Position numbers and translations under genes: made by a program
Assembly (NCBI GenBank): GCA_964510885.1
Contig: CAZEDL010000001.1
Location: 212,663 to 276,662 of the forward strand
Reading direction: 5' to 3'
DNA length: 64,000 nucleotides
Origin: an uncultured Gammaproteobacteria bacterium
Lineage (GTDB): Bacteria > Patescibacteriota > Patescibacteriia > Magasanikbacterales > GWA2-37-8
The notes under the pieces: model-generated
Database searches by the model: none
Told to the model about the DNA's origin: nothing
Seen by the model: the letters and a program-made list of their open reading frames with translations, nothing else
Shown here: in pieces, positions 2,961 to 59,919 of the stretch
How the letters are laid out: the number at the start of each line of letters is the position of its first letter
Numbering within the stretch: the first letter of the stretch is position 1

Positions 2961-3551
2961 CTAGTGGATCTGCGAAACTTCGCCAAATAAGACGTTTTCT
3001 ACAAAAATGCCGCGTGCATAGAAAATTCGTTCTAATTCATTCTTTAAATCCTGCTCTACTTCGTGGCGACGTACGGTGATGATATCTTGGTAAGCAAAGC
3101 GACTAAATACCATGCGGATGCGGCTGCGAATGGCCGGACGAACAATTTTAACTACAAAATCCTCACCAATGGTTTGCCAAATTGACGGAATCTGATGCAC
3201 ATCAAGGCGGAGCAAGATGGTTCCTTCGACCCCAACTCGTTTACCATCAATTGTTACTGCGGCAATTGGGATATCCCCCATCGCCCGTTCGTGCTGCATG
3301 TCGAATTGGCGACTGATGCCATATTCGAGCGTTTGGGTATTGAATAGTTTGGCTTTCTGCCAAAAGGGAATTTTGAGATGCAGGCCTGGAGTGAGCACTT
3401 TTTTGAGCACGCCGCGGCCAAGATCGTAGACACAGGCCACATACCCCGGCGGGACATGAATGAAGAGCCCTTTCAGAACATCATCTACGACGAATGAATA
3501 CATTAACTTATCGAGAGAATCTCCGGCCATAGAGTTGAGTGAAATTTTCAA
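2961..3551 (-). CDS. SPFH/Band-7 (stomatin/prohibitin-like) domain protein
   Basis: 196 aa; SPFH-like pattern; ORF-track start is TTG, internal ATG (MAGDSLDK) at 3530 may be true start. Confidence 0.55.
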   Translation of the reverse strand: MKISLNSMAGDSLDKLMYSFVVDDVLKGLFIHVPPGYVACVYDLGRGVLKKVLTPGLHLKIPFWQKAKLFNTQTLEYGISRQFDMQHERAMGDIPIAAVTIDGKRVGVEGTILLRLDVHQIPSIWQTIGEDFVVKIVRPAIRSRIRMVFSRFAYQDIITVRRHEVEQDLKNELERIFYARGIFVENVLFGEVSQIH

Positions 3552-3645
3552 TTATCAATTTGCAATTTTCAATGACAATTAGATATTGAAAATTGAAGTA
3601 TTGTAAATTGTTTGAAAATTGGAAATTAGATATTGAAAATTAATT
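3540..3645. promoter_or_regulatory. Array of five 9-bp TTGAAAATT / AATTTTCAA motifs in yidC upstream region
   Basis: Two inverted copies (AATTTTCAA at ~3543, ~3565) and three direct copies (TTGAAAATT at ~3594, ~3613, ~3631); 18-bp direct repeat AATTAGATATTGAAAATT twice. Confidence 0.35.
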
Positions 3646-4363
3646 AATGATGCCCACCACCATGACCATGATCTTTTTTAGGGCTAAAAAACATCTTACC
3701 AACCAGGCTAACTATATCAGAAAATACTAGGGTTGTCAAAATAAAAAGTGACTTAACCATGGGCAAAAACCACAGGAAAAAGAAGATGAACAAGGGAAAT
3801 AAAAATAGGAAAAAGAAATCTTCCTGCTCCCATTTCTTTTTGAACCCATGCTCGAGTAGCGTACTGATAAAAACATACCCGGCCACAATGCTGGCCCAGA
3901 TAGTGTCGTGGGTTTTGCCAATATCAAAGCCGTAAAAGTATTTGTTGATGGTGCCCGGAAAGTCTACGCCGCTATATAAAATTTTGATAATTTTTTCACC
4001 ACTGATACCGCGCACAAATACCTGGTAGAGCAATAAAAATACGATTACCTGCACCGCCAGAGTCAGTACTTTAGCCCAGGGCGACACCCCATGGCGGTTC
4101 ATGACACGGCGGAATTCTTGCTTCTGAATGATCGGATCGTGGGAATATTTAGCCGCGACTTGTTTGGCTTCGGCGATCAGGGTTTCTTGCTTGAGGCTGT
4201 TGCGCTCAGAGATAATGCTGAGAGGCAGCAGGGCTACGCGAAGCAATACCGTGAGCCAGATCACCGCCCAGCCCAAATTCTCGCCGGCGATGCTGTTGTA
4301 AATATAAAACAGCGCGTTGAAGAGCGGCTGATAAAAAATGGTGAACCACAGACTAGAAAACAT
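3644..4363 (-). CDS. yidC: Membrane protein insertase YidC/Oxa1 family (short form) with C-terminal His/Gly-rich tail
   Basis: 239 aa; YidC 60-kDa inner-membrane-protein core pattern; C-terminal tail KKDHGHGGGHH. Confidence 0.75.
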   Translation of the reverse strand: MFSSLWFTIFYQPLFNALFYIYNSIAGENLGWAVIWLTVLLRVALLPLSIISERNSLKQETLIAEAKQVAAKYSHDPIIQKQEFRRVMNRHGVSPWAKVLTLAVQVIVFLLLYQVFVRGISGEKIIKILYSGVDFPGTINKYFYGFDIGKTHDTIWASIVAGYVFISTLLEHGFKKKWEQEDFFFLFLFPLFIFFFLWFLPMVKSLFILTTLVFSDIVSLVGKMFFSPKKDHGHGGGHH

Positions 4364-4539
4364 ACATCAGGAGTCAGTAAAAATTATTAAGCTTAGCATA
4401 CCATAAAAAAAGTGTTGTGAAAATAAGTAAAAAATGCTACTATTAATATAGCAAATTTAATCCAAAGTCTAGGCCAACTACTAAAAAAACATTTTTTCTT
4501 GTCGATATTGGGCTGTTTATACAAATCAATAACTAGCGT

Positions 4540-4731
4540 ATGGCTGGAGAGAAATCTTCGCTAAAACAGATGACATCTTTAGTTAAAGATGCATATGCAG
4601 CTTTCGCTGAATTTATGCGTGATTTAATGTCTATAAAAAAAGCTGAAAAAGATATAATTACCGAAGCTCATCGAAGAGTTGATGCCAAAAAGTTAGCAAT
4701 CATTAAATCAAAAATTAATTCTATTGACTAA
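4540..4731 (+). CDS. Hypothetical small helical protein (63 aa)
   Basis: Stop TAA 4729-4731 is 1 nt before ATG of next gene (translational coupling). Confidence 0.35.
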   Translation: MAGEKSSLKQMTSLVKDAYAAFAEFMRDLMSIKKAEKDIITEAHRRVDAKKLAIIKSKINSID

Positions 4732-4732
4732 T

Positions 4733-6520
4733 ATGGCGAAGACACGAGAAAAATTTGTGCTCCCGGTGCCCAAAGAAAATGTAGCTGTCCACGAACGTCT
4801 ACCGCGAGAGCAGTCGACTGCTGACAGCGAGATTGCAGCTTTAGAAGAAATACACGACCGAGCTGCCCAGGAAGTAGGCGTTCTATCAGAGAAATTTGGA
4901 CGCGACATGACAGATCAGGCGTTAACAAAGACAGACAAGCTTGAAATTACCAAGTTAGAAAACCGGGCGAAAGGTTTGTTTGGAAGACTGCAATCAAGAA
5001 TTGAAGGCCTGCTTGGCAGAAAAAAAACAGCTGAAAAAAAGATTGTGATGACTAGTAGCCCGGATAGAGAGATACACTCTAGCGATCATTTGTCGGGAAG
5101 TGAGACATACCAAGAAATGGAGGCTCGAATTAACAAAGAAATTCCTGAGCACTTAACTGCAGAACAGCTTACCAGATTATCTTTACTGGTAGATTCTGAG
5201 CGATTGCTCGTAGAAAAAAAGTTTTACGAGACACCAAACTATGAGACAAAAAACGCGCTAAACAATTTGGTACAAAAGAAAATAGCTATCATGGAGAGGT
5301 TAGAGAAACTAAATAGAGAAGATCCGGAAATAAAACAGGCTGCAGAAGCCAAAAAAATTGACGATTATTTAAAGAACAGCATTCAAGCTCCACCAGAATC
5401 AAAATTGAATTATGACATGGTTTCAGATTCTGTTTTAAATAGCGACCCGCTGTTACTTTTGGGCAGATATTTTCAAGATTTAAACGAGCAGCAGGATAGC
5501 CTCAAGTATTCTAATGATTCTGACAAAAATCCAAAAAGAATGGTCATTGCAGAACGCATGGAAGAGGCAGCACGTGCCCTCGAGAAACTGCGCAAAGGAG
5601 ATCCGGTAGAGGCAGAAAAACTGGTAAAAGATAAATTCTACTATGTTTCCGGTGGGCAGCAGGGAACTGGAATAGATCGGGGCCTTGTTCTTGACAGTAT
5701 CAAGAGGCTTGTCTATCCAAAGTTAAAAAAAGATCTACAAGACAGTGGTCGCCATTTATTGGCTGATTTTCAAGCTCAAGCTGAAGCTGCGCGCCAACAA
5801 CTTAAGGGTTTTGCTCCTGAGACGCTAGATGTTAATTACAACCTTCAGCCGGTGATTAAAGCGATTAACGAACGGATAAATCACTTTACAGAAGTGTTAT
5901 CCGTGGATCAAGCAAACGGCCGTCAAGACAGAGCGGCTGATTTAACAATGGCGCTTCAGGATTTAGAAAAAAGCCGTAAGACAGCGCTGGATCTGATGGA
6001 GGCACAAAAAAAACTACCAGCCGACCTTAACAGCAAGGCAAAAAAACTTGAATCATATCAACCTATTGCGACAGATTCAAAAGAAGTTAGAGAGACATTA
6101 GCGGAAGTTGAATTAAAAAAAGATATAGCAGCTCTTGAGCAAAAGCTGGAAAAAGATATGTCCAGTCTTGAAAATTTTCTTAGCCCGGTTATGAGCGCAG
6201 CTGATTTTGATGCGTTTTTAACTAACCCTAACAAGTTCATTGCCTCAATCCTTGAATTGACACCTGAAAAAATTGCTCAAAAAATCAAGGAAGTCGGGGA
6301 AAAATATAAAACACCTAAAAAATCTGCCCCGGATAAAAACGATGAAGTGGGAAGAAAGCGATTAAGCAAAGCCAAATTAGAATATAATTTCTGGAATGTT
6401 ATACCCGAAACTGTGGAAATAATGCATTCTATCAGACAAAAACAGGAGAAACTTAAAAAGTACGAATCAGATTTGGTTAGTATCCAAAACTTTTCTAAAA
6501 ACGACAGGCTGAGTGCTTAG
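4733..6520 (+). CDS. Hypothetical large K/E-rich predicted coiled-coil protein
   Basis: ~595 aa, heptad-like K/E/L-rich composition throughout, no recognisable catalytic motif; ATG 4733. Confidence 0.5.
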   Translation: MAKTREKFVLPVPKENVAVHERLPREQSTADSEIAALEEIHDRAAQEVGVLSEKFGRDMTDQALTKTDKLEITKLENRAKGLFGRLQSRIEGLLGRKKTAEKKIVMTSSPDREIHSSDHLSGSETYQEMEARINKEIPEHLTAEQLTRLSLLVDSERLLVEKKFYETPNYETKNALNNLVQKKIAIMERLEKLNREDPEIKQAAEAKKIDDYLKNSIQAPPESKLNYDMVSDSVLNSDPLLLLGRYFQDLNEQQDSLKYSNDSDKNPKRMVIAERMEEAARALEKLRKGDPVEAEKLVKDKFYYVSGGQQGTGIDRGLVLDSIKRLVYPKLKKDLQDSGRHLLADFQAQAEAARQQLKGFAPETLDVNYNLQPVIKAINERINHFTEVLSVDQANGRQDRAADLTMALQDLEKSRKTALDLMEAQKKLPADLNSKAKKLESYQPIATDSKEVRETLAEVELKKDIAALEQKLEKDMSSLENFLSPVMSAADFDAFLTNPNKFIASILELTPEKIAQKIKEVGEKYKTPKKSAPDKNDEVGRKRLSKAKLEYNFWNVIPETVEIMHSIRQKQEKLKKYESDLVSIQNFSKNDRLSA

Positions 6521-6571
6521 TTTGCAATAAAAAGAAGGGTAAGTTGAAAAAAGTAGCCTAATATAAAGCAA

Positions 6572-6600
6572 AAAACTACGGAGCGAACCGTAGTTTTTTT
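6572..6600 (+). terminator. Rho-independent terminator
   Basis: CTACGG-AGCGAA-CCGTAG hairpin followed by TTTTTTT. Confidence 0.6.
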
Positions 6601-6818
6601 ATATATATAAAGTAAAACTTACTTGACAATTCGAACAGAATGGGGTAGCGTAGGATGCTATTTCCGCGTTACTGCGGATATAGGACACGCTCTTTTTATT
6701 AGAATAGACTACTCGTCAGTTAGTTGCTTTGAATTAAGGAAATAAATTTTTGTTTGCTAACTTCAAAGCAATTACTAACCGCTTCTCCTGCCGGCAAGGC
6801 AGGGAAAGGAAACAACGA

Positions 6819-7580
6819 ATGATTGAAAAAGATAAAGAAGGTTCGGGAGGAGACATTGGCCCCATGACCACACTCCCCGCTGACACCCTCGTGGTGATTG
6901 AGGCAGAGCTCCCTCCGGACGTGCCTTATGTTCCGGCAGTGGTGTTGGATCCGAACACCCGCCGAAATGAGGCGGTGTACACACCAGAGCTCCTCCGGGC
7001 AGCTGGCCTGTCTGATCCACAGGCTCCACAGCTCCCCCTGCTGAGCGAGGCAGAAGACCATCCGAAGCAGCTACAGGACTATAACGTCGATGTGTCGGAC
7101 CTCTTGGCGGAAGCTGCGGCCGGGCCCCCTCCTCAACCTGGCCCTCCGCCGCTACAACTGCCCACGACTCCACCGGCGCCACAGCGGGCATTCCCGCGCT
7201 CGCGCCTCGGTAGCGTCATCTTGGCGCTCGGTGGCGCTGCTGGCATGGCGCTCATGCTCGCCAACTGGGCCTGGACGAGCCCACCAAAGCCCCGTAGCTC
7301 GACAGATTTCGGTCTGCCGGAGGCAGTGGTGCCTGCGCCCATACCCTCCCCCGACATTCCGCGGCAGTGCCAGCACCTTCCGGCTGCGGCGCGTGGGAAA
7401 CAGTGCCCCGCAGCGACCAGGGCCATTGAGGTCGAGGTACCGGAGCCCCAGAAAAAGCGGCCGAAAAAATCGCGTCGCAAAAGAGCTACACCGCCCACCT
7501 CTCCACCCTCTGTGCCACCACCCGCTGCGGTGGTAGCGCCGCCTGAGCCCGAGCAAGCGCCTCCTCCTCCGGCCGAGTAG
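6819..7580 (+). CDS. Hypothetical proline-rich, single-TM membrane-anchored protein encoded in a high-GC islet
   Basis: ATG 6819 with AGGGAAAGGA SD; PPPQPGPPP / TPPTSPPSVPPP low-complexity segments, central hydrophobic helix (LGSVILALGGAAGMALMLANWAW), basic KKRPKKSRRKR patch; local GC far above flanks. Confidence 0.45.
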   Translation: MIEKDKEGSGGDIGPMTTLPADTLVVIEAELPPDVPYVPAVVLDPNTRRNEAVYTPELLRAAGLSDPQAPQLPLLSEAEDHPKQLQDYNVDVSDLLAEAAAGPPPQPGPPPLQLPTTPPAPQRAFPRSRLGSVILALGGAAGMALMLANWAWTSPPKPRSSTDFGLPEAVVPAPIPSPDIPRQCQHLPAAARGKQCPAATRAIEVEVPEPQKKRPKKSRRKRATPPTSPPSVPPPAAVVAPPEPEQAPPPPAE

Positions 7581-7700
7581 TCACCCCCTGCCCCACCTCC
7601 CATCTGGGACGGCCAACTGGGGCAGGCGCATCGCCCTTCCCCTCCCTGTCATTTTATCTTCGATGAGCTGACAGGTAGAAGGGTGGCGCAATTATTTAAA

Positions 7701-7737
7701 AATATCCTCCTGATTAATCAGGAGGATATTTTTTTAT
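7701..7737. terminator. Strong bidirectional terminator
   Basis: Perfect hairpin ATATCCTCCTGATT-AATC-AGGAGGATAT + T-run. Confidence 0.65.
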
Positions 7738-8039
7738 TTCTTTTCGGACGTAGACAGTATGTTTTTTACCAGAGCAAAATTTTTCTGTTCAGGAGATAGC
7801 CCATATTTGTCTTCCAATTTAGAGGCCTCTTGCAACTGTTTTTTTTTTGGGACTGGCTCGCCTGAACGTAGCGTGGCATTAAAAATGAATAGATAGTCCT
7901 CGGCGTCGCGGCTTGACCAACCGAGTTTCTGTAAGGCTTCTATACGCCTAAGGTTGGCTTCAGCCTCGCTTACTTGGATATCAAACTGGATTTGGTGTGG
8001 AATAATAAATTCACCGGGTACAGGTTTTTTGAAAGGCAT
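7734..8039 (-). CDS. Hypothetical protein (101 aa)
   Basis: ORF with coding-like composition, 2 nt from upstream EEP gene. Confidence 0.4.
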   Translation of the reverse strand: MPFKKPVPGEFIIPHQIQFDIQVSEAEANLRRIEALQKLGWSSRDAEDYLFIFNATLRSGEPVPKKKQLQEASKLEDKYGLSPEQKNFALVKNILSTSEKK

Positions 8040-8041
8040 AG

Positions 8042-8842
8042 TTAATTAATAGTAAGAATAAGCGGCAAATGGTCAGAGATTGGCAAATCCGGAACGGTAA
8101 AATTTTTTACGGTCAGGCCCGGAGTAACAAAAGCATAATCGGCAAATTCTTGAAACCCATTCTCGCCGGCCGCATATTCTGGGTGGATCTGCTTAAGCAA
8201 GCTACCACGCGTCGTCTTGATAGCCCATTCTTTAACCAGGTTGCGGAAACCCGCTTTTTCAAAGGCAGTGACGCTGACAGTGTCGGGAAGTAGATTAAAA
8301 TCTCCCATGATAACTTTGTCTCCACTAAATTGCTCTGCTGTCCGGATAATTTTTTCTGACTGGGCTAACCGGTCGGGTGTATCTAGCTTTGAGAATGGAT
8401 AGGCGGTGCCGTGGACGCTAAAAACAGTTAGTGGCATCCCCTTCAATTCAGTTCTGACGTAAGCTGAGTTATGCGGCAAGGTAATAATATCATCAGCCAT
8501 ATAACTATTACGTTCGTGATAGATAAAGAAATTGCCACTGCCGTGAATGGGCCAGGTTTTTTTTACAAACAGCGCCACACCTTGCTCGATCGGAAGCGGC
8601 ACCATTGTCTCGACGTCAAAATTAGCTTGGGACGGAGCGAAAAAATGCTGGAAGCCTGGCAAAGCAGTGATTAGCTCTTCAAGCAAATTGGTGCGGGCGC
8701 CGTGACTTTCGCCAGCCGGGCCGGTGGTAGAGAGTATCTCTTGAAAACAAAAAATATCCGTGGTTGGGGCCTCGGATGTTATGAAGTCAAGCAGCGGTTC
8801 AAAAAAATGACCGGCGTATGTATTAAGCGAAATTATTTTCAT
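8042..8842 (-). CDS. Endonuclease/exonuclease/phosphatase (EEP) family protein
   Basis: 266 aa; EEP signatures (…MGDFNLLPD…, …SDHLPLIL…). Confidence 0.7.
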   Translation of the reverse strand: MKIISLNTYAGHFFEPLLDFITSEAPTTDIFCFQEILSTTGPAGESHGARTNLLEELITALPGFQHFFAPSQANFDVETMVPLPIEQGVALFVKKTWPIHGSGNFFIYHERNSYMADDIITLPHNSAYVRTELKGMPLTVFSVHGTAYPFSKLDTPDRLAQSEKIIRTAEQFSGDKVIMGDFNLLPDTVSVTAFEKAGFRNLVKEWAIKTTRGSLLKQIHPEYAAGENGFQEFADYAFVTPGLTVKNFTVPDLPISDHLPLILTIN

Positions 8843-9109
8843 AATAAAGCTTTCACTCTCCTAGCCCACGAGGGCCCAGGGCGGCCGTTTTATAGCCTAA
8901 CTTGTTCTGGGATAAGCCATAATATGAGGTCGTGCAGACCTCACCGCCTGATCAATCTATATTTTTTGCCTAGCAAGAAATTATCGTGCCGGAGATATGG
9001 AATTAGCTGCAAGGTTTTATTTAACCAAAATTATTCGCTTTGCAATATGTTAGAAAAAAGAATTTTATAATGATAACACATTTTATGAACTTTAAGCAAC
9101 TCTCGATGA

Positions 9110-10624
9110 TTGACTGACACGCAATTATCTGATATGATCAGCCACGTTTATAGCTCCACTCATATGGAACATGGCAATGTAATCATTCGGTTTGATACCG
9201 TGCAATTTGCCTACCAAGAAGGCAAGCAGATCCTTGAAGAGGCTAGTTTTTCGGTGCGTAAAAATGCCAAAGTGACCATCATGGGGCAAAACGGAGCGGG
9301 CAAAAGCACTATTTTTAAATTGATCCTCAATGAGCTTAGCCCGGACAGCGGCAGTGTTAGCATCGAGAACGGAGCCAAGATTGCCATTGCCACCCAGGTA
9401 ATGAAGCCGGAATTTTTTGACAAAACAGTGGCCGAATTTTTTGCCACCGCTTTTGAAGAAAAAACCTATGATCTGCCGAAACGAATTAAAGATGTGCTCG
9501 AAATTGTCCATTTGACCGCCCCGTTAGATAAATTGATCAAAGGTTTTTCGGGTGGCCAACAGGCCAGGCTGCTTTTGGCCTATGCCATTATTCAAGAACC
9601 GGATATTTTACTGCTTGATGAACCGACCAACAATCTTGATAGCCAAGGAATTGCGCATCTCACTGAATTTTTGATCAATTATCCCAAGACCTGCTTGGTC
9701 ATTTCGCATGATGCAAATTTTTTGAATGCCTTTACAGACGGCGTGTTATATCTCGATGTCTTCACCAAACAAGTGGAGCAGTATGTGGGCGACTATTACA
9801 ATGTGCTTGGTGAAATCGAAGCGCGGATTGAACGCGAACGCATGAAAAATGCCCAGCTGCGTAAAAGTATCCAAGATCGCAAGGATAAAATAAACTTTTT
9901 TGCCAATAAAGGGGGCAAGATGCGCAAACTGGCCAGCAAATTGCGTGACCAGGTGGAAGAAGCCGAGGATTCAATGGTAGATGAACGGCGCGAAGACAAA
10001 ACAATTAATGACTTTATGATTCCCGCCAGCACCGAACTGGTAGGGCCGGTGGTGGAAATTAGTTCGGTTGGGGTGATGATCGATCATGAGCCAGTACGAA
10101 AAACATTGCTGTCCCCCCTATCGCTTCGTAAAAAACAATGTTTGCTAATTGAAGGACCCAATGGCATTGGAAAGAGCACACTGCTTGCAGCGTTGGCTGC
10201 TGGCACCGAAAGCGGAGCTACGATTGCTAAGGATGTAAAAGTGGGATATTACCGACAAGATTTTTCAGGGCTAAATTTTGATCAAACCGCCTATGAAGCT
10301 TTGGCCGAAATGATGGTGGACCCCTGGAACCAAGAAATTTATGCTACGGCGTCGCAATTTTTATTAACCCCAGAAGTACTGCGTAATAAAGTAGGAGCTT
10401 TGTCGGAAGGTCAAAAAGGACTTTTGTGCTATGCCCGGTTTGTGTTACAAAAGCCGGGTTTACTGATTATGGATGAACCGACGAATCATATTAATTTTCG
10501 ACACCTCCCGGTGATTGCCAAAGCACTCGATGAATTTGAAGGGGCACTGATTCTGGTGAGTCATGCCTATGAATTTATTGGAGAAATAACGATTGATCAG
10601 CGCTTGGATCTGGTGAATATTTGA
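9110..10624 (+). CDS. ABC-F family ATPase (two tandem ABC domains, no TMD)
   Basis: Walker A GQNGAGKST and GPNGIGKST, signatures LSGGQQ / LSEGQK, Walker B LLLDEPTN / LIMDEPTN; start codon uncertain (TTG at 9110 or downstream ATG). Confidence 0.8.
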   Translation: MTDTQLSDMISHVYSSTHMEHGNVIIRFDTVQFAYQEGKQILEEASFSVRKNAKVTIMGQNGAGKSTIFKLILNELSPDSGSVSIENGAKIAIATQVMKPEFFDKTVAEFFATAFEEKTYDLPKRIKDVLEIVHLTAPLDKLIKGFSGGQQARLLLAYAIIQEPDILLLDEPTNNLDSQGIAHLTEFLINYPKTCLVISHDANFLNAFTDGVLYLDVFTKQVEQYVGDYYNVLGEIEARIERERMKNAQLRKSIQDRKDKINFFANKGGKMRKLASKLRDQVEEAEDSMVDERREDKTINDFMIPASTELVGPVVEISSVGVMIDHEPVRKTLLSPLSLRKKQCLLIEGPNGIGKSTLLAALAAGTESGATIAKDVKVGYYRQDFSGLNFDQTAYEALAEMMVDPWNQEIYATASQFLLTPEVLRNKVGALSEGQKGLLCYARFVLQKPGLLIMDEPTNHINFRHLPVIAKALDEFEGALILVSHAYEFIGEITIDQRLDLVNI

Positions 10625-10746
10625 CTTTTTTTTAAGAATATCTTAGAGTCCGAATCAGAGCATTTTGTTGGCCAAAATTGCGTAATAAGGCGTATGTATG
10701 GCCAATTTATCACCGGACTGCTTGTTGCGGTCCAAGGAGCTTGCAC

Positions 10747-10914
10747 ATGAAAATTTTGCGAATTGCGACTCTTTTTATCGGGTTTGCCTGCTTAGGGTGG
10801 GGGTACCCCGGACAGTGCGAAAACGACACCAACTGCCCCACGGGGCAGGTGTGTGGGAAGGAAAAAAGGTGCGTTCCAGCGCCAAAGCCAATCCCCAGGC
10901 CACCCACCAAGTAA
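10747..10914 (+). CDS. Small secreted cysteine-rich peptide (56 aa precursor; C-X5-C-X5-C-X5-C + Pro-rich tail)
   Basis: AAGGAG SD 8 nt before ATG 10747; Sec-type signal MKILRIATLFIGFACLGWG; four Cys at regular spacing; strong terminator follows. Confidence 0.5.
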   Translation: MKILRIATLFIGFACLGWGYPGQCENDTNCPTGQVCGKEKRCVPAPKPIPRPPTK

Positions 10915-10936
10915 GACCCCAGTAAGGTAGCCTGAA

Positions 10937-10975
10937 GCCGCCGGTTTCCTCTAACCGGCGGCTCTTTCTTTTTTA
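10937..10975 (+). terminator. Rho-independent terminator
   Basis: AGCCGCCGGTT…AACCGGCGGCT hairpin + TTTCTTTTTT. Confidence 0.65.
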
Positions 10976-11062
10976 AAGCATATTTAACCAGCCATTCCTT
11001 GACAATCGCTGGTTTTTTTGTTATATTTTAGCATTAATTTTGATTCCTTAACCAAGGATTTT

Positions 11063-12637
11063 ATGAATAAGTTTACAGCTTTTTTAAAAAGCCACTCGAC
11101 GATCATGTATGTGATTGTGGCAGTCGTATTGGTAGGCGCTGGCGCAGCTAACTATGCCCGGCATAAGCGGGCGGCAGCCACCGCACCTGTTGACACGACT
11201 ACCCGTGTCAGCCTGGTAGAGGCTAAGACATTTTTGAAAAGTACGGGCGTGGTAGCGGCTACCGGGGTGGTTGAATCGGCCGAGCAGGCAGATGTCCGTA
11301 GCCAGGCCACTGGCCAGGTGGCCCGGGTCAGTGCAGCGGTTGGCAACAGGGTCTATCGCGGTCAAGTATTAGTGAGCCTGACCAGCGCTGATTTACAAGC
11401 TCAGCGCCGACAGGCTGAGGCGGCTTTGAAAGTACAAGAAGCCAGTTTGCAACAGCTCTATAGCGGTGCCAAAACAGAGGATATTAGCCTGGCTGAAGCA
11501 CAACTCGCAGCGGCCCGAAAAAATGTAGAAGATGTACGCAGGCAACAGGAGGTAAACGTGAAAAATGCCTATTCAACGATGCTTAACGCCGGCCTCAGCG
11601 CCATGCCAGCGATTACCAATCAATCTACGGCAGCGCTGACTCTAAGCGGCACCTATACCGGGGAGCCTGGCACGTATAAAATTTCCCTTATCCAGGGCGG
11701 CGATGGGATCACTCTTAATTCTAGCGGCCTCGAAGTTGCCAGTGCCCGGGTCTATCCGGGGATAGCGACTGCGCTTGGTAAACGCGGATTATTCTTCACG
11801 TTCGCAGCCACCGGCAATATTAGCGTCCATGACACCTGGACTATCACGATTCCAAATACCCAGTCCCCTACCTATTTAGCGGCCAGCAATGCCTATGACG
11901 CCACCAAGCAAGCGTCCGAGGCAGCAATTCAAGGAGCAGAGAACGCCTTAGACATTGCTCAAAAAGCTCTTGATCTTAAAAAATCATCGGCTACAAATGC
12001 GCAGATTCAGGCCCAGCTCGCCGCCATAGAACAAGCCAAAGCGTCGATTGCTTTTATCAATGCGCAAATTGCTAAAACCGTAATTACCTCGCCGATTAAC
12101 GGGGTGATTTCAAACGTATCTATAAAATACGGCGAACTGGTTAGTGCTGGGCAGAAAGTGGCCAGTGTCGTAAATAACGGTGGATTACAAGTTAAGGTCT
12201 ATGTCAGCAGCGAAGATCTGCCGCGCCTTAGCGCCAAAGATAAAGTAACAATTGGCGCCACGGCAAACGGTGAGATTACCAATCTGGCGCCTAGTGTTGA
12301 TCCCACCAGTAAAACAGCTGAGGTAGTGATCAGTGTGGTGAACCCTCAAAAATCAGGATTGACGGCAGGACAAAATATTTCGGTCAAAATCAGCGGCGAA
12401 AAATCAAATGGTTCAACTAGCGATGTGTTTGTATTGCCGATTCAAATGGTGACTATTGCCCCCGACCAGAGTGCAACGGTGTACACGGTAGAGACTGGAA
12501 AAATTACCGCTTATCCAGTGGAACTCGGCCCGGTGAATGGTGAAACAGTGACGGTAAAAAAAGGGCTGAAAGCTGATATGAAATTAGTCTCTTCGGGATA
12601 TGGGCTGACGGTGGGACAAACGGTGATTGTTCAGTAA
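11063..12637 (+). CDS. Efflux transporter periplasmic adaptor (membrane-fusion/HlyD-like) subunit
   Basis: N-terminal TM anchor, coiled-coil hairpin (QAQRRQAEAALKVQEASLQQL…), C-terminal beta-barrel pattern; sits 15 bp upstream of RND gene. Confidence 0.65.
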   Translation: MNKFTAFLKSHSTIMYVIVAVVLVGAGAANYARHKRAAATAPVDTTTRVSLVEAKTFLKSTGVVAATGVVESAEQADVRSQATGQVARVSAAVGNRVYRGQVLVSLTSADLQAQRRQAEAALKVQEASLQQLYSGAKTEDISLAEAQLAAARKNVEDVRRQQEVNVKNAYSTMLNAGLSAMPAITNQSTAALTLSGTYTGEPGTYKISLIQGGDGITLNSSGLEVASARVYPGIATALGKRGLFFTFAATGNISVHDTWTITIPNTQSPTYLAASNAYDATKQASEAAIQGAENALDIAQKALDLKKSSATNAQIQAQLAAIEQAKASIAFINAQIAKTVITSPINGVISNVSIKYGELVSAGQKVASVVNNGGLQVKVYVSSEDLPRLSAKDKVTIGATANGEITNLAPSVDPTSKTAEVVISVVNPQKSGLTAGQNISVKISGEKSNGSTSDVFVLPIQMVTIAPDQSATVYTVETGKITAYPVELGPVNGETVTVKKGLKADMKLVSSGYGLTVGQTVIVQ

Positions 12638-19925: not shown

Positions 19926-20310
19926 AAAGTGACAACTCTTTATCGCTGAGAATACTAAACAAATCTGTTAATAGATCCACATTTTGACGCTCAAATTTTT
20001 TTAACATACGAGCAGCTTTTGGTGACAGTGATAGATTGGCACGGCGACGATCTTGTTTATACTGAGTCCGAATCAGATATTTTTTCTCGACTAAACTATC
20101 TACTAATTGCGAAACGGCACTACTGCTAACGTGAAGAGAATTGGCAATTTCTTTTACCTGAGCACTACCCTGGTCAGAGACGCACCGCAATACCATACCT
20201 TGGGACGGGGTAATGAGCCTGCTCTTACTCCCGTGACCTACGGCTAATTTCTTGCGCATTTGTAAAAAGAAGTGCCAAAGATTATTTATAAGTTCAGTTC
20301 GGCTGGGCAT
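19894..20310 (-). CDS. MarR family transcriptional regulator
   Basis: 138 aa winged-helix MarR pattern; first gene of MarR-ABC-ABC operon. Confidence 0.75.
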   Translation of the reverse strand: MPSRTELINNLWHFFLQMRKKLAVGHGSKSRLITPSQGMVLRCVSDQGSAQVKEIANSLHVSSSAVSQLVDSLVEKKYLIRTQYKQDRRRANLSLSPKAARMLKKFERQNVDLLTDLFSILSDKELSLYVALNKKITF

Positions 20311-20322
20311 GTTTTTTTAATT

Positions 20323-20355
20323 TAATAAGCTGCTTATTATTTAAGCAGCTTATTA
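20323..20355. promoter_or_regulatory. Palindromic candidate MarR operator (ATAAGCTGCTTAT / ATAAGCAGCTTAT inverted pair)
   Basis: TAATAAGCTGCTTATTATTTAAGCAGCTTATTA 13-45 bp upstream of marR start. Confidence 0.45.
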
Positions 20356-20419
20356 AATTTGCGTCAAATAGCTTTGGTTACCTAGATTCAAACTGAATCC
20401 CATCGTTATCAAATCTTTT

Positions 20420-20743
20420 TTATCCATTTCGGTGTGGGCAGCCTGGCCAACAGCATGGCCGACGTTGACCGTCTTTTAAATGTGTGCTCACGCGAGCTAT
20501 ATGCTGAAGTCTCGTAGACGGTTTTTTTACCGAATTAACCCAACAAATCCACTCATTGCGGGCTAGTGGAGTTATATCTTCCCAGATGGACAGGGTTGCC
20601 GAGTCAGAAGCCAGCGCTTTTTTTAGATCAGGCGGCAGTTCATGTAAAATGCCAGGAGAAATTTTTTTAGGCATGTTACTACTTTTTAAACTATTGTTAA
20701 TACATTTTGTATGGCTACTCTGGTTAAGCAGCCTCTGCTTCAA
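20420..20743 (-). CDS. YdeI/OmpD-associated (OmdA, bacteriocin-protection) family protein
   Basis: …ARNEWICWVNSVKKPSTRLQHIARV… resembles OmdA domain; true start probably internal Met (MPKKISPG). Confidence 0.45.
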   Translation of the reverse strand: MKQRLLNQSSHTKCINNSLKSSNMPKKISPGILHELPPDLKKALASDSATLSIWEDITPLARNEWICWVNSVKKPSTRLQHIARVSTHLKDGQRRPCCWPGCPHRNG

Positions 20744-20933
20744 TCATTGTAGAAGTTTCTATGACGATTGTCGAGGGCTTAATTTTGTGAATTCAAACAA
20801 ATATTTGATGAGGCAGTGACAAGGATCAGGGAAGATGAAAAATACATCAAGACCAGCCTGATTGGTATTACCAAGTAAAGCGCTGTTAACCTGCGAGTGA
20901 ATAATAACACTACAGGATTACCTCCATGCATCA

Positions 20934-21431
20934 TTATTCTAGGATAGGATACTTTTTGATTATAGACCGCTTCTTCCACCATTTCCCCAATCCATAATAA
21001 TCCCCTGCCCTTAGCTCAGCCGCTGCTATTCCTATTAAAAGTATTAAGTAGACAACATGTTCGTCAATAACTGGGTTATTCTTTGGAGGCAAAAGAGCGA
21101 GCCACATAAGCAATACCATAAATGCACCACTCCAACCGGCAATCTTAGTGCACACCCCTAAAATGAGTGATAGGCCAATACCTAATAGTCCGAGCATAAA
21201 TAACCAGTCTACAAAGACACTGCCGGACAGCGCATTAAAAAAACTACTAAATGGCCCACTTACACCAAACTTTAAAAAACCAGCTGTTGGTGAACCTCCA
21301 TGTATCCAAGCTTGCTCGGGTTGGGTGGCAAAGCCAAAGCCAAATAATTTATCTACAAAAGCCCAGAGAAAGATACTCCCCAGAGACAATCGGACTGCGA
21401 CCCAAACATATACATCTGCGATATATTCCAT
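20934..21431 (-). CDS. DoxX family membrane protein
   Basis: 165 aa; N-terminal RLSLGSIFLWAFVDKL DoxX motif, 4 TM. Confidence 0.7.
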   Translation of the reverse strand: MEYIADVYVWVAVRLSLGSIFLWAFVDKLFGFGFATQPEQAWIHGGSPTAGFLKFGVSGPFSSFFNALSGSVFVDWLFMLGLLGIGLSLILGVCTKIAGWSGAFMVLLMWLALLPPKNNPVIDEHVVYLILLIGIAAAELRAGDYYGLGKWWKKRSIIKKYPILE

Positions 21432-21540
21432 ATATTTAAAAATAATTAGTAAGCTGTTTTTTTATAACAGAATTATTCCTTTGAGATCGAAACTTGTAAT
21501 CACTCTTTTTTGCAGTAAATGCATAGGCACTGCGAGGTAT

Positions 21541-21570
21541 AAACACAAAAACTCACCCGGGGAGGTGAGC
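21541..21570 (-). terminator. Terminator after Com-like gene
   Basis: minus strand GCTCACCTCCCCGGGTGAG + TTTTTGTGTTT. Confidence 0.5.
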
Positions 21571-21609
21571 TTCAAGAGCTTCTTAAAAAAATTGCTTATA
21601 AAACTTTCT

Positions 21610-21822
21610 CTATGATCGTGTGCGCTGAATCTGGTCAAAACGACCAATACGGTGCGGACAAGGAGAAAAAGCGCAGAAGTACTGATTCGATTCGGCACTC
21701 TCGATACTATTCATTTTCTGGCATGACCGGCACTTTACTTCAACTACACTATCCACCAGCATACCCTTAAACAATAATTTTCGGCAGGCGCTACAGCGGT
21801 ATTCTTTCCAGAGAGCGTTCAT
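21610..21822 (-). CDS. Com-family (phage Mu Com-like) zinc-finger regulator
   Basis: 70 aa; YRCSACRKLLFK…EVKCRSCQKMN matches Com C4 zinc-finger pattern. Confidence 0.5.
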   Translation of the reverse strand: MNALWKEYRCSACRKLLFKGMLVDSVVEVKCRSCQKMNSIESAESNQYFCAFSPCPHRIGRFDQIQRTRS

Positions 21823-21933
21823 ATTGGCTACTATATTGCAGACTGTATAAATTATACTAACACATATTCATTAACCCCACAATTCATACCGGGTATTTAT
21901 CCACATCTTAATTTATCACTTAAACTCGAATCT

Positions 21934-31558: not shown

Positions 31559-31765
31559 CGCTTGAGGTTTTAGTTTTTAGGTGTTAGGTTTTAGCGTCTT
31601 AATTGATGTTACTATAGCGCTCTTTTTTTGGTCTTGTCAATTTGTTAAAACTAAAAGAACCCCGACTAAATCAGGATTCTTAGCAGGTTCCCGAGACTGT
31701 GGTGTGACGAAAGTGAAGTGTCGGGAGGGCACCTCACCTTCTGAGGGTCGGCCAAGACTTGCTGG

Positions 31766-32608
31766 CTAGGGCTGAAAGGCCCGGGCGCGGATGTCTGGCG
31801 GGATGAAATCGAGCTCCATCGCGGCTGCCTGCCGCGCCATCTTTCTGACGTCGAACAGAGCTGGGCCTGCTGGATGCTGATTGAACATAATGGGCGCCAC
31901 CAAGGGCAGAAGGTTTCTTACGACCCACATCCGAATGCGCCCAAGCTGTGTTCTGACGTAGACGAGGTGACCAACCTCATCGATGAGGATTTGCTCGATC
32001 AGGTCGAGTATGCGGCGACCAGCCGTTGTTTCGGTACCGAGCAGCTGGCTCGTTTTCTCTCGAAGGGCGACGAACATGAGAACCGCTCCAATCTCACCGA
32101 CCAACCCGAGCATACTACTAATGCTGTGTGGCAGTATGGCCGCCAGGAGAAGAAAAAGCCGCATGAAGCCGCGCGGCTTGCGCATCTCGGCGTTGAGGCC
32201 GAGTACGCTCAGTGCGTCCACCAGGATGCGGGTGTGATATATCTCCTCAATTTCGATAGTGGTCATGGGATCCTTCAAATCCGTCCTTCGACGGATGGCG
32301 AGCGCGATCTCGATGGCGTAGGCCTCCGCCATGTTGACTGAGGCCAAGAGCCCAGCGAAGATTGCGATGTGCGAGCAATGCCTGATGTCCGCGACAGATA
32401 TCGCGTTGAGGACTCGGCTATATTCATCTAAACACACTTGACCATCCCACTTGACGGGGTTAGCGGCATGCTCGGAGAAATATACCTCACGCGCCGCGAG
32501 TGTATGGTTCTCGAGGCCTACCTCTCCATTGCGCTGCTTGCTCCATTGTAAGTACGCTGCAGCTTGTCGAACCCGCTCTTTCCTAGAAAGTACTCGCAGA
32601 AACTTCAT
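31766..32608 (-). CDS. Hypothetical protein with two E…ExxH pairs (possible ferritin-like diiron fold), in a GC-elevated islet
   Basis: EAYAIE…EEIYH and GEIG…DEVGH spaced ~30 aa; 280-aa ORF in ~57% GC DNA; could be partly spurious. Confidence 0.3.
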   Translation of the reverse strand: MKFLRVLSRKERVRQAAAYLQWSKQRNGEVGLENHTLAAREVYFSEHAANPVKWDGQVCLDEYSRVLNAISVADIRHCSHIAIFAGLLASVNMAEAYAIEIALAIRRRTDLKDPMTTIEIEEIYHTRILVDALSVLGLNAEMRKPRGFMRLFLLLAAILPHSISSMLGLVGEIGAVLMFVALREKTSQLLGTETTAGRRILDLIEQILIDEVGHLVYVRTQLGRIRMWVVRNLLPLVAPIMFNQHPAGPALFDVRKMARQAAAMELDFIPPDIRARAFQP

Positions 32609-35366: not shown

Positions 35367-35568
35367 AACTCAAGCAAATTCTGAATTTTCCTACGGTTGA
35401 GCAATTATACGCTGACGTTAGCTAAAAGTCTAATTCTCATTCGTTCTCAAGTATCCGCATCCGTACTCCCCTTTCATCACTTTTTGGCCACAGGGTGGAC
35501 ACAAACTTTTAAGATGTTCAACGGCAACACAGAGAAAGTGATATTGCGGGGAAACCCGTATAGAAAAT

Positions 35569-36228
35569 TTATGGTAGAGGAAGGTTCTTGTCCTTCTTTC
35601 CAAAAAGGACGTAAATAAAGGCTTTATAGTAAAAAAGTAAGCCTCCGGCCACTAATCCTACCCAAGTTAAAACAGAAAATAAAATTGTTTGTATATAAAA
35701 AATGTAATTTCTCTGATACTTAACTATGTCTTGATATTCACAATTATTTCGATCATCTTTATTGATAAGACAAACCAAACTTTTCTCCTTGATTGTATTG
35801 ATAACATAAGTTTTCAAAAACTCCCTTTCTTTTCCTTGGTTATCATAATAATTAGGAATAATTACAGGCAACACCGAATCAAGAGAACTCAAAATATCTT
35901 TATTGCAATAACTATCTTTAGAAAGACTATACTCCGAAAGCCACTTATAATTATTTGCTGGTTTATCAAGGCATCCTAGCTCACCTTTTGTAGCCAAAAA
36001 ATCAGGCAATACATTGGTGGAGCTATCTACACTCTTGGTATATTCATTAAGATTTGAAATAATCTTAGTATTTGAAGGTTTTAATTGTAATAAGAAATAG
36101 TACGAAATCGGTATTAGAACTATTAGTAAGGAAATAATAAGAAAGAAAACCACCTTAAATAGCCTGTGCCACCATTTAGAATTTAAGTTTAAGTCTGGGC
36201 GAAAAAAATTATTATATCTTTGCTTCAT
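35569..36228 (-). CDS. Hypothetical membrane protein (island cargo)
   Basis: 219 aa, TM near N-term and C-term. Confidence 0.4.
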   Translation of the reverse strand: MKQRYNNFFRPDLNLNSKWWHRLFKVVFFLIISLLIVLIPISYYFLLQLKPSNTKIISNLNEYTKSVDSSTNVLPDFLATKGELGCLDKPANNYKWLSEYSLSKDSYCNKDILSSLDSVLPVIIPNYYDNQGKEREFLKTYVINTIKEKSLVCLINKDDRNNCEYQDIVKYQRNYIFYIQTILFSVLTWVGLVAGGLLFYYKAFIYVLFGKKDKNLPLP

Positions 36229-36305
36229 AATATTAAAAAAATTAACGCCTCACCTTTTCACTTTCGTAAACTTGCTTAAAATATTTCCTAGTTTTCATGT
36301 TATTT

Positions 36306-36665
36306 TTATCTAAATTTTTCTACCTCATTATCATAATCCGACCTTGTATCAACCGCTTTTATTTCTTTTCCTTCTAAAATGTCCTTCAGTACAAAGGATG
36401 TATAGACTTTTTCCTTGCCATTAAAATCGGCATGTGTGACTCTGGCTAAACCTTCTAAACACGTATCCAGCTTTGTGCTGTAAAAAATTTCCAACAGAGA
36501 AAGGTTGTTATAGGGAGAATTTTCAGTGTTATACTTTTCGATATTTTGTTTTTCAGTAGAAATATAGTTTGAACATTCAAGTTTTTTCTGAAAACTAATA
36601 TCATTTTTTGCACAACCCGCACCTATCATTAGAAAAATGATCAAGAAAAAACCTATTTTTCTCAT
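36306..36665 (-). CDS. Hypothetical lipoprotein (island cargo)
   Basis: Signal peptide + lipobox IGAGC. Confidence 0.45.
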   Translation of the reverse strand: MRKIGFFLIIFLMIGAGCAKNDISFQKKLECSNYISTEKQNIEKYNTENSPYNNLSLLEIFYSTKLDTCLEGLARVTHADFNGKEKVYTSFVLKDILEGKEIKAVDTRSDYDNEVEKFR

Positions 36666-36679
36666 AAATTATTGTTAAT

Positions 36680-37288
36680 TTATCTAAAAGTACTAGTAAC
36701 GGTACTTGAACTACTCAGACCCGTGTCTGTATTAAGCACACTAGTAACAGGGGCTATTTTTTTAGAAGTCGGATGTAGAAAACTTAAAAGGCTTCCCCAA
36801 TTAAACACCACCGCAATAACCAGAACAGCAAGAAGAGTGAAAAAACCTACTATAAAAAAGCTGTTAATTTTTTTTGTAATGGCAGAAAAGGCAATTTTTG
36901 TTGTTGGTAATTGTGCTTTATAAAAAGCATACACTAAGACTAAAAATCCTAAGTAGCCTAAATATCTTTTTAAACTAGACATTTGTCCAAATGCGCTGAT
37001 AATAATATAACCAACCAAACTAACAAGCATTGTTGTAAAAGGAAGTTTTTCTTCAAGATGGGCTAATAAACTAGGGACGTATTGGATACCATAATTGTCA
37101 CCGCCACCCAGCCCTTTCCTACTAGTCCAGTCATCTGACGAAGTACCCCCACCGCTCTTAGTGCCACCCTCTTGATTAACTGAATTAGGTTGCCCAAAAC
37201 TACTGATATCCTCAAAATTATCAGTATCTATAGAAACTCCGGTTGGTTTTTCGTTCGTATTCCTAGAATCAACCGCTCCGTTATTCAT
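36680..37288 (-). CDS. Hypothetical membrane protein with Gly/Ser-rich N-terminal region (island cargo)
   Basis: 202 aa; GGTKSGGGTSSDD low-complexity then 3-4 TM. Confidence 0.4.
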   Translation of the reverse strand: MNNGAVDSRNTNEKPTGVSIDTDNFEDISSFGQPNSVNQEGGTKSGGGTSSDDWTSRKGLGGGDNYGIQYVPSLLAHLEEKLPFTTMLVSLVGYIIISAFGQMSSLKRYLGYLGFLVLVYAFYKAQLPTTKIAFSAITKKINSFFIVGFFTLLAVLVIAVVFNWGSLLSFLHPTSKKIAPVTSVLNTDTGLSSSSTVTSTFR

Positions 37289-38003
37289 AGAAATATGTCA
37301 AAAAACCATTGTGTATTTCTTCGATTGCATTCACATTTGATTTACACAGGTTTAGTAATTGATCCGGATCCAAGACCATCTCTTTATTTTGATAGAAATC
37401 AATGCTACAAAAAGTGCCACAGTCACGCTTGAAATTTTCCGGATAAATCTTTTTATTTTCAAAAAACCGAGTAAAAGCCTCTTCTGCAGAAACAGGGCCG
37501 GTTTGAAAATTATACTTACCTTCAGATCGTTCGCAATCATTAAAGGTATAACCAAAATCTAATATTTTTGAATTAGTATAAGTTTCAAATGAGGCATAAT
37601 TTTTAAACATTTTTTCTTTATACCTTGTTTTTATATTCTCAAGGTTATCTGCGCTTCTATAGTTCAAAACCAAGGACTTTGTGCCGACCCGTATTAAAGA
37701 CTTGATGGGGTATTTATCAAATTTTCTTAAAATTCTAAATAAATCATCAATTTTATTACGAAACTCGCCAAAATCAGGAGAAGCTTCAATTTGAAGACCA
37801 AAATTTTCTAAACTAAAAAAAAGAAACTCTGAAAAATCTTCAGTAGCAACATCCACTCGATCGTTTGCCATTCTTATTTTTGTAAACTCTGAATTTCTAG
37901 ATATTAAATACTCCGCCATCTCGCCTTTAAAATCTATGAAAGAAAATTTTCTATTCTTTAATCGAATTTCTAGAAGATGCCTAATTATTTTTGTATCCGA
38001 CAT
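37281..38003 (-). CDS. Hypothetical protein (island cargo)
   Basis: 240 aa soluble, no recognised motif. Confidence 0.4.
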   Translation of the reverse strand: MSDTKIIRHLLEIRLKNRKFSFIDFKGEMAEYLISRNSEFTKIRMANDRVDVATEDFSEFLFFSLENFGLQIEASPDFGEFRNKIDDLFRILRKFDKYPIKSLIRVGTKSLVLNYRSADNLENIKTRYKEKMFKNYASFETYTNSKILDFGYTFNDCERSEGKYNFQTGPVSAEEAFTRFFENKKIYPENFKRDCGTFCSIDFYQNKEMVLDPDQLLNLCKSNVNAIEEIHNGFLTYFYE

Positions 38004-38129
38004 AATAGTAAATTCTATTTTAGAATAGAAATTAAAGCCTTGAATTTTAGAAATTTAAAATTTGTGTATAGGCTAATTTTGCTATACTATAGCAGAAAAT
38101 CAATATTTTACAAGCAAAATCCTCCCACT

Positions 38130-39242
38130 ATGCCCTCCCCTAACCCTCAAGTCGTCACCGCCATAGATACAGGTAAAATGTTAGAAAGACTACATTCTTC
38201 AACACAGACAACCGAGCAGAATTTTCTTCCTACGTTATTTGACTATCTAGAGTATATAGTTAAGAATCCAAAAACTAAGGCTCTGCTTCAGGAATTAGAA
38301 AAATCCCGAACAGATGCCTATAGCAGCTACTTTGAGCTTAAATCGAAGTCAAAAAAAGAACTTGAGAAATCAAAAAAAATACTCTTAGGAGCAGTCGCTA
38401 AAAATAAAATACAGAATCCTCAGCTAAAAGAGCGTACTGAAAACTGGAAACGTTATGAAAAAGGTGAAATAAGTAGCAACGCACTTTATGAGCACCGATT
38501 AGAAAGCTTTCTAATCGATATCTTCGATATTCTTTTTAAAGAGGGGTGCGGATCACTAATTGAGCCTTTATTTCCCAAAAATAACTATGGAAATTTGATT
38601 TTTTCTCCCTCTTTAGCCTTGTTTAAGAGAGAAAGTGAAAGGATAGACGAATTAAGAGATATTGAAATGTGGCATTGTTGGTATTCATTAAAATTTGTAC
38701 CCGAAATATCTAAACAAACTTTTGGCGATATAATGCACTCTCAAGGCCATTTAACTCACGAAGAGATCGGCTATTATTTTGACGCCTTACGTTTTAGGCA
38801 AGAGGGGCGAAAAGAAAAATCCAAGGATTATGAAGAGGATTTGCCAAAATATAAGGGCTATTTGAATCGACTGCACAACTATCTTGTTCAAAGATTGGAC
38901 GAAAGTAAAACCATTCCACTAGAGCAACCAATGACCCACAAGCTCAACTTTTTTCCAGCAGACGGAACAGCTCAATACAGAGGATCCAGCTATATATTCG
39001 CCTCAGGAACCAAAGGGCATGAATTATTAAACTTCTTATTTAACTCAAAAAATACCCCTTTAGAATTGCGCTACTTTCAAGAGCGATGTAACGAGAAAAT
39101 CAGGATCGGAAGGAATAAATTTAAAACAGACAAAGATATTTTAGACACGGTTAACCATATTAAAAAAAGACTGAAAGTGAATAAGAGTGAATACTTTCCT
39201 ATTTTTAAAACCGAAAAATGCTTTATTTGGGAGGAAAAATAG
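38130..39242 (+). CDS. Hypothetical protein (island cargo)
   Basis: start set at ATG 38130 (track ORF starts earlier and overlaps the divergent gene); terminator at 39300-39328. Confidence 0.4.
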   Translation: MPSPNPQVVTAIDTGKMLERLHSSTQTTEQNFLPTLFDYLEYIVKNPKTKALLQELEKSRTDAYSSYFELKSKSKKELEKSKKILLGAVAKNKIQNPQLKERTENWKRYEKGEISSNALYEHRLESFLIDIFDILFKEGCGSLIEPLFPKNNYGNLIFSPSLALFKRESERIDELRDIEMWHCWYSLKFVPEISKQTFGDIMHSQGHLTHEEIGYYFDALRFRQEGRKEKSKDYEEDLPKYKGYLNRLHNYLVQRLDESKTIPLEQPMTHKLNFFPADGTAQYRGSSYIFASGTKGHELLNFLFNSKNTPLELRYFQERCNEKIRIGRNKFKTDKDILDTVNHIKKRLKVNKSEYFPIFKTEKCFIWEEK

Positions 39243-47154: not shown

Positions 47155-47162
47155 ACTAACAT

Positions 47163-47189
47163 TAAAACATGAAAACACGAGAACATTTT
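47163..47189. repeat. Conserved ~27-nt motif CATTAAAACATGAAAACAC(G/T)AGAACAT, copy 1 (upstream of typA)
   Basis: Near-identical to 59920-59946. Confidence 0.55.
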
Positions 47190-48582: not shown

Positions 48583-48633
48583 CTAGATACCTCCGAAAGA
48601 AGATGGTGCCACTTCGAACAGAATTGTTCGCAG

Positions 48634-59914: not shown

Positions 59915-59919
59915 TAAAA

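Follow-up and report, generated by a model that had tools for sequence, protein, structure and literature searches.

A GC-rich islet carrying a candidate gene for an orphan, proline-rich membrane protein in a Patescibacteria/CPR chromosome

A compositionally distinct block of about 0.8 kb (positions 6840-7646), here termed islet 1, sits in a Patescibacteria/CPR chromosome, between two terminators and at a convergent-gene junction. All coordinates refer to the stretch of 64 kb that was analysed as a whole (the window). The GC content per 200 nt rises from 0.37-0.43 (6600-6899) to 0.57-0.71 (6800-7699) and falls back to 0.37-0.44, against a mean of 0.450 for the entire window and a standard deviation of 0.073 among its 200-nt segments. 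Two-change-point maximum-likelihood segmentation places the block, without regard to strand, at 6840-7646, with a GC content of 0.667 compared to 0.394 in the flanks (log-likelihood ratio 82), and yields support intervals (2-lnL) of 6835-6860 for the left and 7636-7689 for the right border. The GC-rich islet of approximately 800 bp recorded in a preliminary description of this DNA is therefore real, and the step is statistically extreme. No flanking direct repeats were found around islet 1, and there are no tandem or terminal repeats. A structured non-coding RNA was rejected as an interpretation of the block, given the absence of Rfam matches within it and a folding z-score of only -2.19 (20 shuffles).

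The upstream limit of the islet transcription unit is a hairpin flanked by an A-run and a T-run (6570-6599), which lies 3' of a gene for a 595-amino-acid protein. It is followed on the plus strand by an AT-rich 5' leader (6600-6818) with a GC content of 0.36 and a native-like composition. The leader contains three predicted hairpins at about 6648-6690, 6721-6774 and 6784-6806, the second of which forms an inverted repeat with 26-nt arms, while the last adjoins a Shine-Dalgarno (SD)-like AAGGAAA. With a minimum free energy of -63.5 kcal/mol and a z-score of -4.35 against 200 shuffles, the region 6600-6830 is unusually structured; it has no Rfam match and no further copy within the 64-kb window. 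The AAGGAAA motif is located 8 nt upstream of ATG 6819, in agreement with the SD element noticed earlier. The TTGACA promoter suspected at the same time is present as a hexamer (6624-6629), but remains unconfirmed, since the promoter scan gave no acceptable -10 partner on that strand. Downstream, the predicted perfect bidirectional terminator is indeed found: a palindrome (7698-7733) with 18-nt arms (7698-7715 and 7716-7733) that are 100% complementary, preceded by an A5 run and followed by a T-run. This terminator is common to the islet-1 gene and a convergent gene for a 101-amino-acid protein (7734-8039, minus strand).

A single ORF spans the block (6819-7580, plus strand; 253 amino acids) and has the same limits in the NCBI and Logan records, and a second possible start at ATG 6864 would yield a product of 238 amino acids. 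Relative to the ORF, the block is shifted downstream: its start lies 16-41 nt past ATG 6819, and its end 56 nt or more past the stop codon. GC contents at codon positions 1, 2 and 3 of the ORF are 0.75, 0.56 and 0.64, respectively. From ATG 6864 onward the phase-specific values amount to 0.76, 0.57 and 0.66, a coding-type 3-periodicity whose contrast was reached in 1 of 5000 shuffles. The stop-free run covers 242 of the 267 codons of the block, which is only marginally more than in simulations with matched composition (p about 0.03-0.06). The block also shows overlapping ORFs in both orientations, as pointed out before. Antisense coding was dismissed, because stops disrupt the codon-aligned frame of the opposite strand, as was stop-codon recoding, because code 11 leaves housekeeping ORFs intact. 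The ORF is considered a real or very recently real gene, based on its periodicity, the broken antisense frame, the protein-like layout of its product, the AT-rich start context and the dedicated terminator. Beyond the TAG stop, a tail on the plus strand (7581-7646) has a GC content of 0.71 with 50% C, and its in-frame continuation reads SPPAPPPIWDGQLGQAHRPSPPC; the GC-rich and C-rich stretch past the stop was measured as 66-70 nt.

The islet-1 protein contains 20.6% proline and 13.4% alanine, and shows the features ascribed to it beforehand, namely stretches such as PPPQPGPPP and PTSPPSVPPP, one predicted transmembrane (TM) helix and a basic patch. Residues 1-100 are acidic (net charge -13), and residues 101-128 form a Pro-rich linker that ends in RAFPRSR, directly preceding a single hydrophobic helix, RLGSVILALGGAAGMALMLANWAW (residues about 129-152; encoded at 7203-7274, plus strand). 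This helix is the only Kyte-Doolittle 19-mer peak (2.01), and an AlphaFold2 model places a helix at residues 134-148. The C-terminal portion of about 100 residues past the helix harbours 28 prolines, two cysteines (184 and 196) and a polybasic patch, KKRPKKSRRKR (residues 212-222; 7452-7484, plus strand), read from the protein as QKKRPKKSRRKR. There is no signal peptide or N-terminal hydrophobic segment, and the first 183 residues are devoid of cysteine. The single-sequence AlphaFold2 model is mostly coil with a pLDDT of 52.5, too poor for a fold search; this value is compatible with disorder and proves neither disorder nor a fold.

Judged from its sequence, the product is probably a largely disordered, single-pass (bitopic) membrane protein, and the earlier proposal of a membrane protein is reasonable in light of the predicted TM helix. 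The helix would anchor the protein in an N-in/C-out orientation, a topology that is favoured by the lack of a signal peptide, since export of a 128-residue N-terminal tail is unlikely. The acidic N-terminal region of about 100 residues and the Pro-rich linker would then remain cytoplasmic, and the outward, Pro-rich and basic C-terminal tail might act as an elongated spacer and bind anionic envelope polymers of the bacterium's own wall or of a host cell. This function is a guess from composition.

Several known protein classes share parts of this architecture. TonB, RodZ and membrane anti-sigma factors of the RskA and RsdA types likewise combine a cytoplasmic N-terminal region with a single TM helix and a Pro-rich far side, whereas the islet-1 protein lacks TonB_C, HTH, zf-HC2 and RskA domains, and the resemblance is an architectural analogy only, of use as a model for a rigid spacer. 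Membership in the TonB family was rejected, as no Pfam match appears up to an E-value of 10 and the TM helix, which is N-terminal in TonB, is internal in the islet-1 protein. Membrane anti-sigma factors of the zf-HC2/RskA kind carry an N-terminal HxxxCxxC motif, and were discarded in view of the cysteine-free N-terminus and the missing Pfam match; no sigma-factor family was matched among the Pfam-scanned neighbours of the islet-1 gene. Wall-spanning Pro-rich proteins of the Gram-positive LPXTG class share a Pro-rich segment able to cross the cell wall, but the islet-1 protein would have an internal TM helix as its anchor, and sortase anchoring was excluded on the basis of the absent LPxTG match and N-terminal hydrophobic segment.

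Homology searches retrieved very little. In a word-indexed search of 5.8 billion protein clusters, the islet-1 protein found only itself, as did the upstream 595-amino-acid protein and a 188-amino-acid protein from a second islet described below; all window proteins that were looked up form singletons at the 90% identity level. The islet-1 protein has no match in Pfam (E-values up to 10), NCBIfam, PHROGs or PDB sequences. The islet gave no hits in blastn and tblastn searches against phages and plasmids, and back-translated scans of JGI metagenome contigs and IMG/VR returned no homologue of it. HMMER searches of 1.84 billion representatives produced one marginal non-self match, P0002 (E=2.7e-4), whose similarity centres on the TM helix and the adjoining low-complexity sequence. 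P0002 is a metagenomic protein of 210 amino acids with 29% identity over about 140 residues, including the pattern F-x-RSR-x3-ILALGG-x-A-x2-AL near the TM helix. It also possesses a Pro-rich linker, but begins with a zinc-ribbon-like CxxC region, in contrast to the islet-1 protein, which has no Cys-rich N-terminus; the two show no DNA similarity, and the P0002 contig comprises 975 bp with 54% GC. Orphan status as such says little, since the 595-amino-acid neighbour of native composition is an orphan, too.

The surroundings of islet 1 indicate a Patescibacteria/CPR host. An adjacent gene (8042-8842) encodes a protein of the endonuclease/exonuclease/phosphatase (EEP) family, whose best relatives, 47-53% identical, are found in metagenome-assembled genomes (MAGs) of Patescibacteria/CPR, such as Magasanikbacteria and Daviesbacteria. 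The closest GTDB genome representative reaches 49% identity, the closest metagenome contig 53%. At these best loci in GTDB genomes and metagenomes (49-53% identical), none of the islet's other flanking genes accompanies the EEP orthologue. The host lineage is essentially unsampled in the collections. Between the YidC and EEP genes, positions 4540-8039 comprise four consecutive genes without a family match, coding for 63 amino acids, a coiled-coil-like protein of 595 amino acids, the islet-1 protein and 101 amino acids. In a Uhrbacteria MAG, an unrelated Pro-rich ORF (17% Pro, 235 amino acids; locus L044, 11313-12020, plus strand) forms a GC peak of 0.64 over 0.50 with a GC3 of 0.69, at a distance of 560 nt downstream of the EEP gene. 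This proximity may be a selection effect, because all of the loci were chosen for containing an EEP gene.

Two further high-GC islets had been claimed for the window. The second is clear (about 47326-48625, GC about 0.6); the third (31651-32325, GC 0.575) is weaker. Islet 2 harbours two orphan genes on the minus strand (48016-48582 and 47377-47871), both products of which start like signal peptides, and the 188-amino-acid protein, with a GC3 of 0.78, has no homologues and ends in a His-rich C-terminus (HPDHHGHPGHG). Islets 1 and 2 share no sequence similarity. Probably corresponding to the third islet, an ORF for 280 amino acids (31766-32608, minus strand) has a GC3 of 0.67, hydrophobic segments and no Pfam match, and its dinucleotide distance ranks among the highest in the window. 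A low-GC island (about 35400-38800, GC 0.29-0.34), with four ORFs lacking Pfam matches and a high dinucleotide distance, adds another type of compositional mosaic to the window. The window also contains two copies of a 28-nt element, CATTAAAACATGAAAACAC[G/T]AGAACATT (47160-47187 and 59912-59939, 96% identity), one of them at the 5' end of the typA/bipA region; the pair may be a shared regulatory motif. Finally, a 2-kb segment (19926-21933) is free of long unambiguous ORFs and features only overlapping ORFs of 155-165 amino acids on both strands.

Much of the GC richness of islet 1 can be traced to the protein it encodes. When the islet-1 protein is re-encoded according to the synonymous codon usage of 40 native genes, the expected GC content is 0.598, compared to 0.650 observed for the gene and approximately 0.45 for the genome. 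Thus, about 74% of the GC excess is due to amino acid composition, that is, to the proline (CCN), alanine (GCN), glycine (GGN) and arginine (CGN) codons. At third codon positions, 0.640 is observed versus 0.507 expected, an excess of 0.134 (z=2.2 against native genes), which is surpassed by one native gene with a deviation of +0.170. Synonymous sites in islet 1 are much less foreign than in the islet-2 gene at 48016-48582 (GC3 0.78, z=4.4). The Karlin composition-normalised dinucleotide distance of the block is 0.198, above the maximum of 0.182 reached by any 806-bp segment in the rest of the 64-kb window; the relative abundance of CpG is 0.77 in the block versus 1.07 in the background, that of GpC 1.03 versus 1.34, and that of TG/CA in the block 1.21. 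Protein composition leaves four things unexplained: the 3' tail, the offset between block and ORF borders, the dinucleotide distance and the translation signals.

The translation signals set the atypical genes apart from their neighbours. Among the 44 genes of native composition, 43 lack anti-SD pairing at the first start (weaker than -4 kcal/mol), and in the remaining one, the EEP gene, the spacing is too long. The left edge of the block carries GGGAGGAG (6845-6852, plus strand; 6845-6866 together with the ATG), with a predicted anti-SD duplex of -10.3 kcal/mol and a spacing of 11-13 nt to the in-frame ATG 6864. Both islet-2 genes carry GGAGG 7-8 nt upstream of their ATG (-10.9 and -10.5 kcal/mol), a spacing that is optimal in the gene with a GC3 of 0.78, and the atypical gene at 31766-32608 has AAGGAAG 8 nt upstream. 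The SD strength of atypical and native genes differs (Mann-Whitney p=0.004), even with the native genes granted their best candidate start within the first 40 codons. The high-GC atypical genes with GGAGG or AAGGA start at 6864/6819 (plus strand) and at 47856, 48582 and 32608 (minus strand). The anti-SD motif has been found in only 48% of Parcubacteria, many of which lack it, and SD helices are probably not formed in lineages without an anti-SD (PMC9297842). GGGAGGAG and ATG 6864 may represent a donor's ribosome-binding site and start. The GGAGG of islet 1 could have arisen by chance, since G-rich codons make the motif likely and the spacing is long; for the islet-2 sites a chance origin is unlikely. 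The contrast as a whole fits imported DNA that retained the ribosome-binding site of its donor.

Patescibacteria frequently show horizontal gene transfer and genomic islands (PMC12455944). Islet 1 is akin to small, horizontally acquired islets with orphan envelope genes, which are genomic islands in the broad sense. It resembles them in its atypical GC content and dinucleotides, its sharp borders and its orphan gene, which encodes a membrane or secreted protein and sits amid unrelated housekeeping-type genes. The block deviates from its host in composition and oligonucleotide signature, as expected for a genomic island. It differs from these islets by its size of about 0.8 kb and its single gene, by the absence of an integrase, a tRNA target and direct repeats, by having no identifiable donor and by a GC anomaly that stems mostly from protein composition. 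The Pfam-scanned neighbours (2961-12637) contain no integrase or transposase domain, and the tRNAs of the window lie at 24.6 and 42.1 kb. Islet 1 is a family-less newcomer to a familiar class, the single-gene atypical islet with an orphan envelope protein.

The reading we favour, with about even confidence, is that islet 1 is a horizontally acquired membrane-protein gene, the result of an ordinary kind of event. The GC3 excess, the GC-rich non-coding tail, the dinucleotide distance and the SD motif at the block edge suggest an import. According to this reading, the block would be a small piece of DNA from a moderately GC-rich, SD-using donor, which arrived with the ORF, a short 3' tail and its own GGAGG site and start codon (ATG 6864). 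Expression would now depend on an AT-rich leader of native style, and the use of ATG 6819 may add 15 residues to the N-terminus. Around three quarters of the GC richness would be a by-product of a protein rich in Pro, Ala, Gly and Arg, and the remainder a foreign signature at synonymous and non-coding sites. The modest synonymous shift, an ORF length barely beyond chance, the want of mobility genes, an adjacent tRNA or flanking direct repeats, and the failure of the searches to reveal a donor or homologue count against an import. Horizontal acquisition, as first proposed, is therefore plausible on the combined signs, but the claim stays donor-less and the larger part of the GC excess is compositional.

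The suggested actinobacterial or eukaryote-like source found no backing, as the searched libraries hold no convincing homologue, and GC3 and CpG abundance point elsewhere. Genomic GC content is generally related to GC3, and a GC3 of 0.64 is far below the expectation for an actinobacterial gene with 65-70% GC. This value argues against a recent actinobacterial origin of islet 1 and suggests a donor near 55% GC rather than an actinobacterium with 65-70% GC, the alternative being long amelioration.

The main rival to import, possible yet on balance doubtful, is a native, fast-evolving and lineage-specific gene, whose GC peak would be the footprint of a Pro/Ala-rich low-complexity protein without any transfer. 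Native codon usage accounts for most of the GC excess, the GC3 deviation is only z=2.2 and is exceeded in one native gene, and the AT-rich leader, the start and the first codons look native. Moreover, the surrounding genes in 4540-8039 are orphans and yet native in composition, and the unrelated Pro-rich ORF of the Uhrbacteria MAG likewise produces a GC peak. A native origin is harder to reconcile with a 66-nt tail past the stop that equals the gene in GC and C richness, with block limits that are displaced from those of the ORF, with a dinucleotide distance above that of every background segment, and with the strong SD motif at the edge of the block, given that SD motifs are scarce in this genome. 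Moreover, among 1664 ORFs of at least 150 amino acids in CPR loci totalling 1.84 Mb, there is one plausible case with at least 14% Pro, which makes Pro-rich ORFs very uncommon there.

It is quite unlikely that the block is imported or decaying DNA without a functional protein in this host, and that the long ORF is a relic or arose by chance from the high GC content. The marginal significance of the ORF length, the overlap of several long ORFs on both strands and the lack of homologues for a selection test are in keeping with such a relic, and the Pro-rich reading that continues past TAG suggests a recent truncation. Yet, the strong 3-periodicity pertains to exactly this frame, stops break the antisense codon-aligned frame, and the product is laid out like a protein, with an acidic domain and a linker ahead of the Arg-flanked TM helix and a basic patch behind it. 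In addition, the start codon lies in AT-rich surroundings, and the gene has a dedicated terminator.

An assembly chimera or contaminant fragment, in which DNA of a GC-rich organism was spliced into a CPR contig, had been raised as an alternative to transfer, and is now disfavoured to the point of being very improbable. Sharp compositional borders, translation signals of donor type and the occurrence of the block in one genome only are what a chimera would produce. However, an independent Logan contig from run SRR16481186 (L001, 3913 bp) corresponds to positions 3818-7730 of the window with 100% identity and without gaps; it crosses both block borders, and thus joins the YidC gene, the native 595-amino-acid gene, the whole block and the AT-rich terminator. 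The islet-1 protein is recorded in the NCBI contig (400,724 bp) and separately in this Logan assembly. Furthermore, a stop-free frame leads from the AT-rich start into the block, and islet 2 together with native flank was recovered from two runs (SRR16481186 and SRR16481187).

Hardly credible is a eukaryote-like effector, whose polybasic patch KKRPKKSRRKR, which we take to resemble a classical monopartite nuclear localization signal (NLS), would act as an NLS and whose PxxP runs would be SH3, WW or profilin ligands in a eukaryotic host: the CpG and TG/CA abundances and 14 overlapping PxxP matches agree with this idea, but that count is as expected for a sequence with 20% Pro, the central TM helix suggests that the protein stays in the bacterial membrane, neither a secretion system nor a signal peptide is apparent, and protein searches yielded no eukaryotic or other homologue.

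Acquisition of islet 1 by horizontal transfer, the preferred reading, can be extended to the other atypical genes of the window, in a scenario that we regard as speculative and rather improbable. The CPR cell would capture short pieces of GC-richer DNA from a partner or host and place them under native SD-less leaders; islet 1, the two islet-2 genes and possibly the gene at 31766-32608 would have been gained in this manner. The orphan secreted and membrane proteins would serve the symbiont-host interface, and, as the ribosomes of the lineage may lack an anti-SD, the SD motifs of the donor would persist as non-functional fossils.

On a general note, islet 1 cautions that an eye-catching GC islet can be three-quarters amino acid composition. 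The most useful by-product of the islet analysis is the SD contrast: in a CPR lineage poor in anti-SD, the presence of an SD may be a composition-independent marker of imported genes, and if the islets are imports, this contrast would be a simple marker for recent imports in Parcubacteria that lack the anti-SD. If the islets are imports, they would also imply that a streamlined bacterium of the episymbiont type gains envelope proteins gene by gene.
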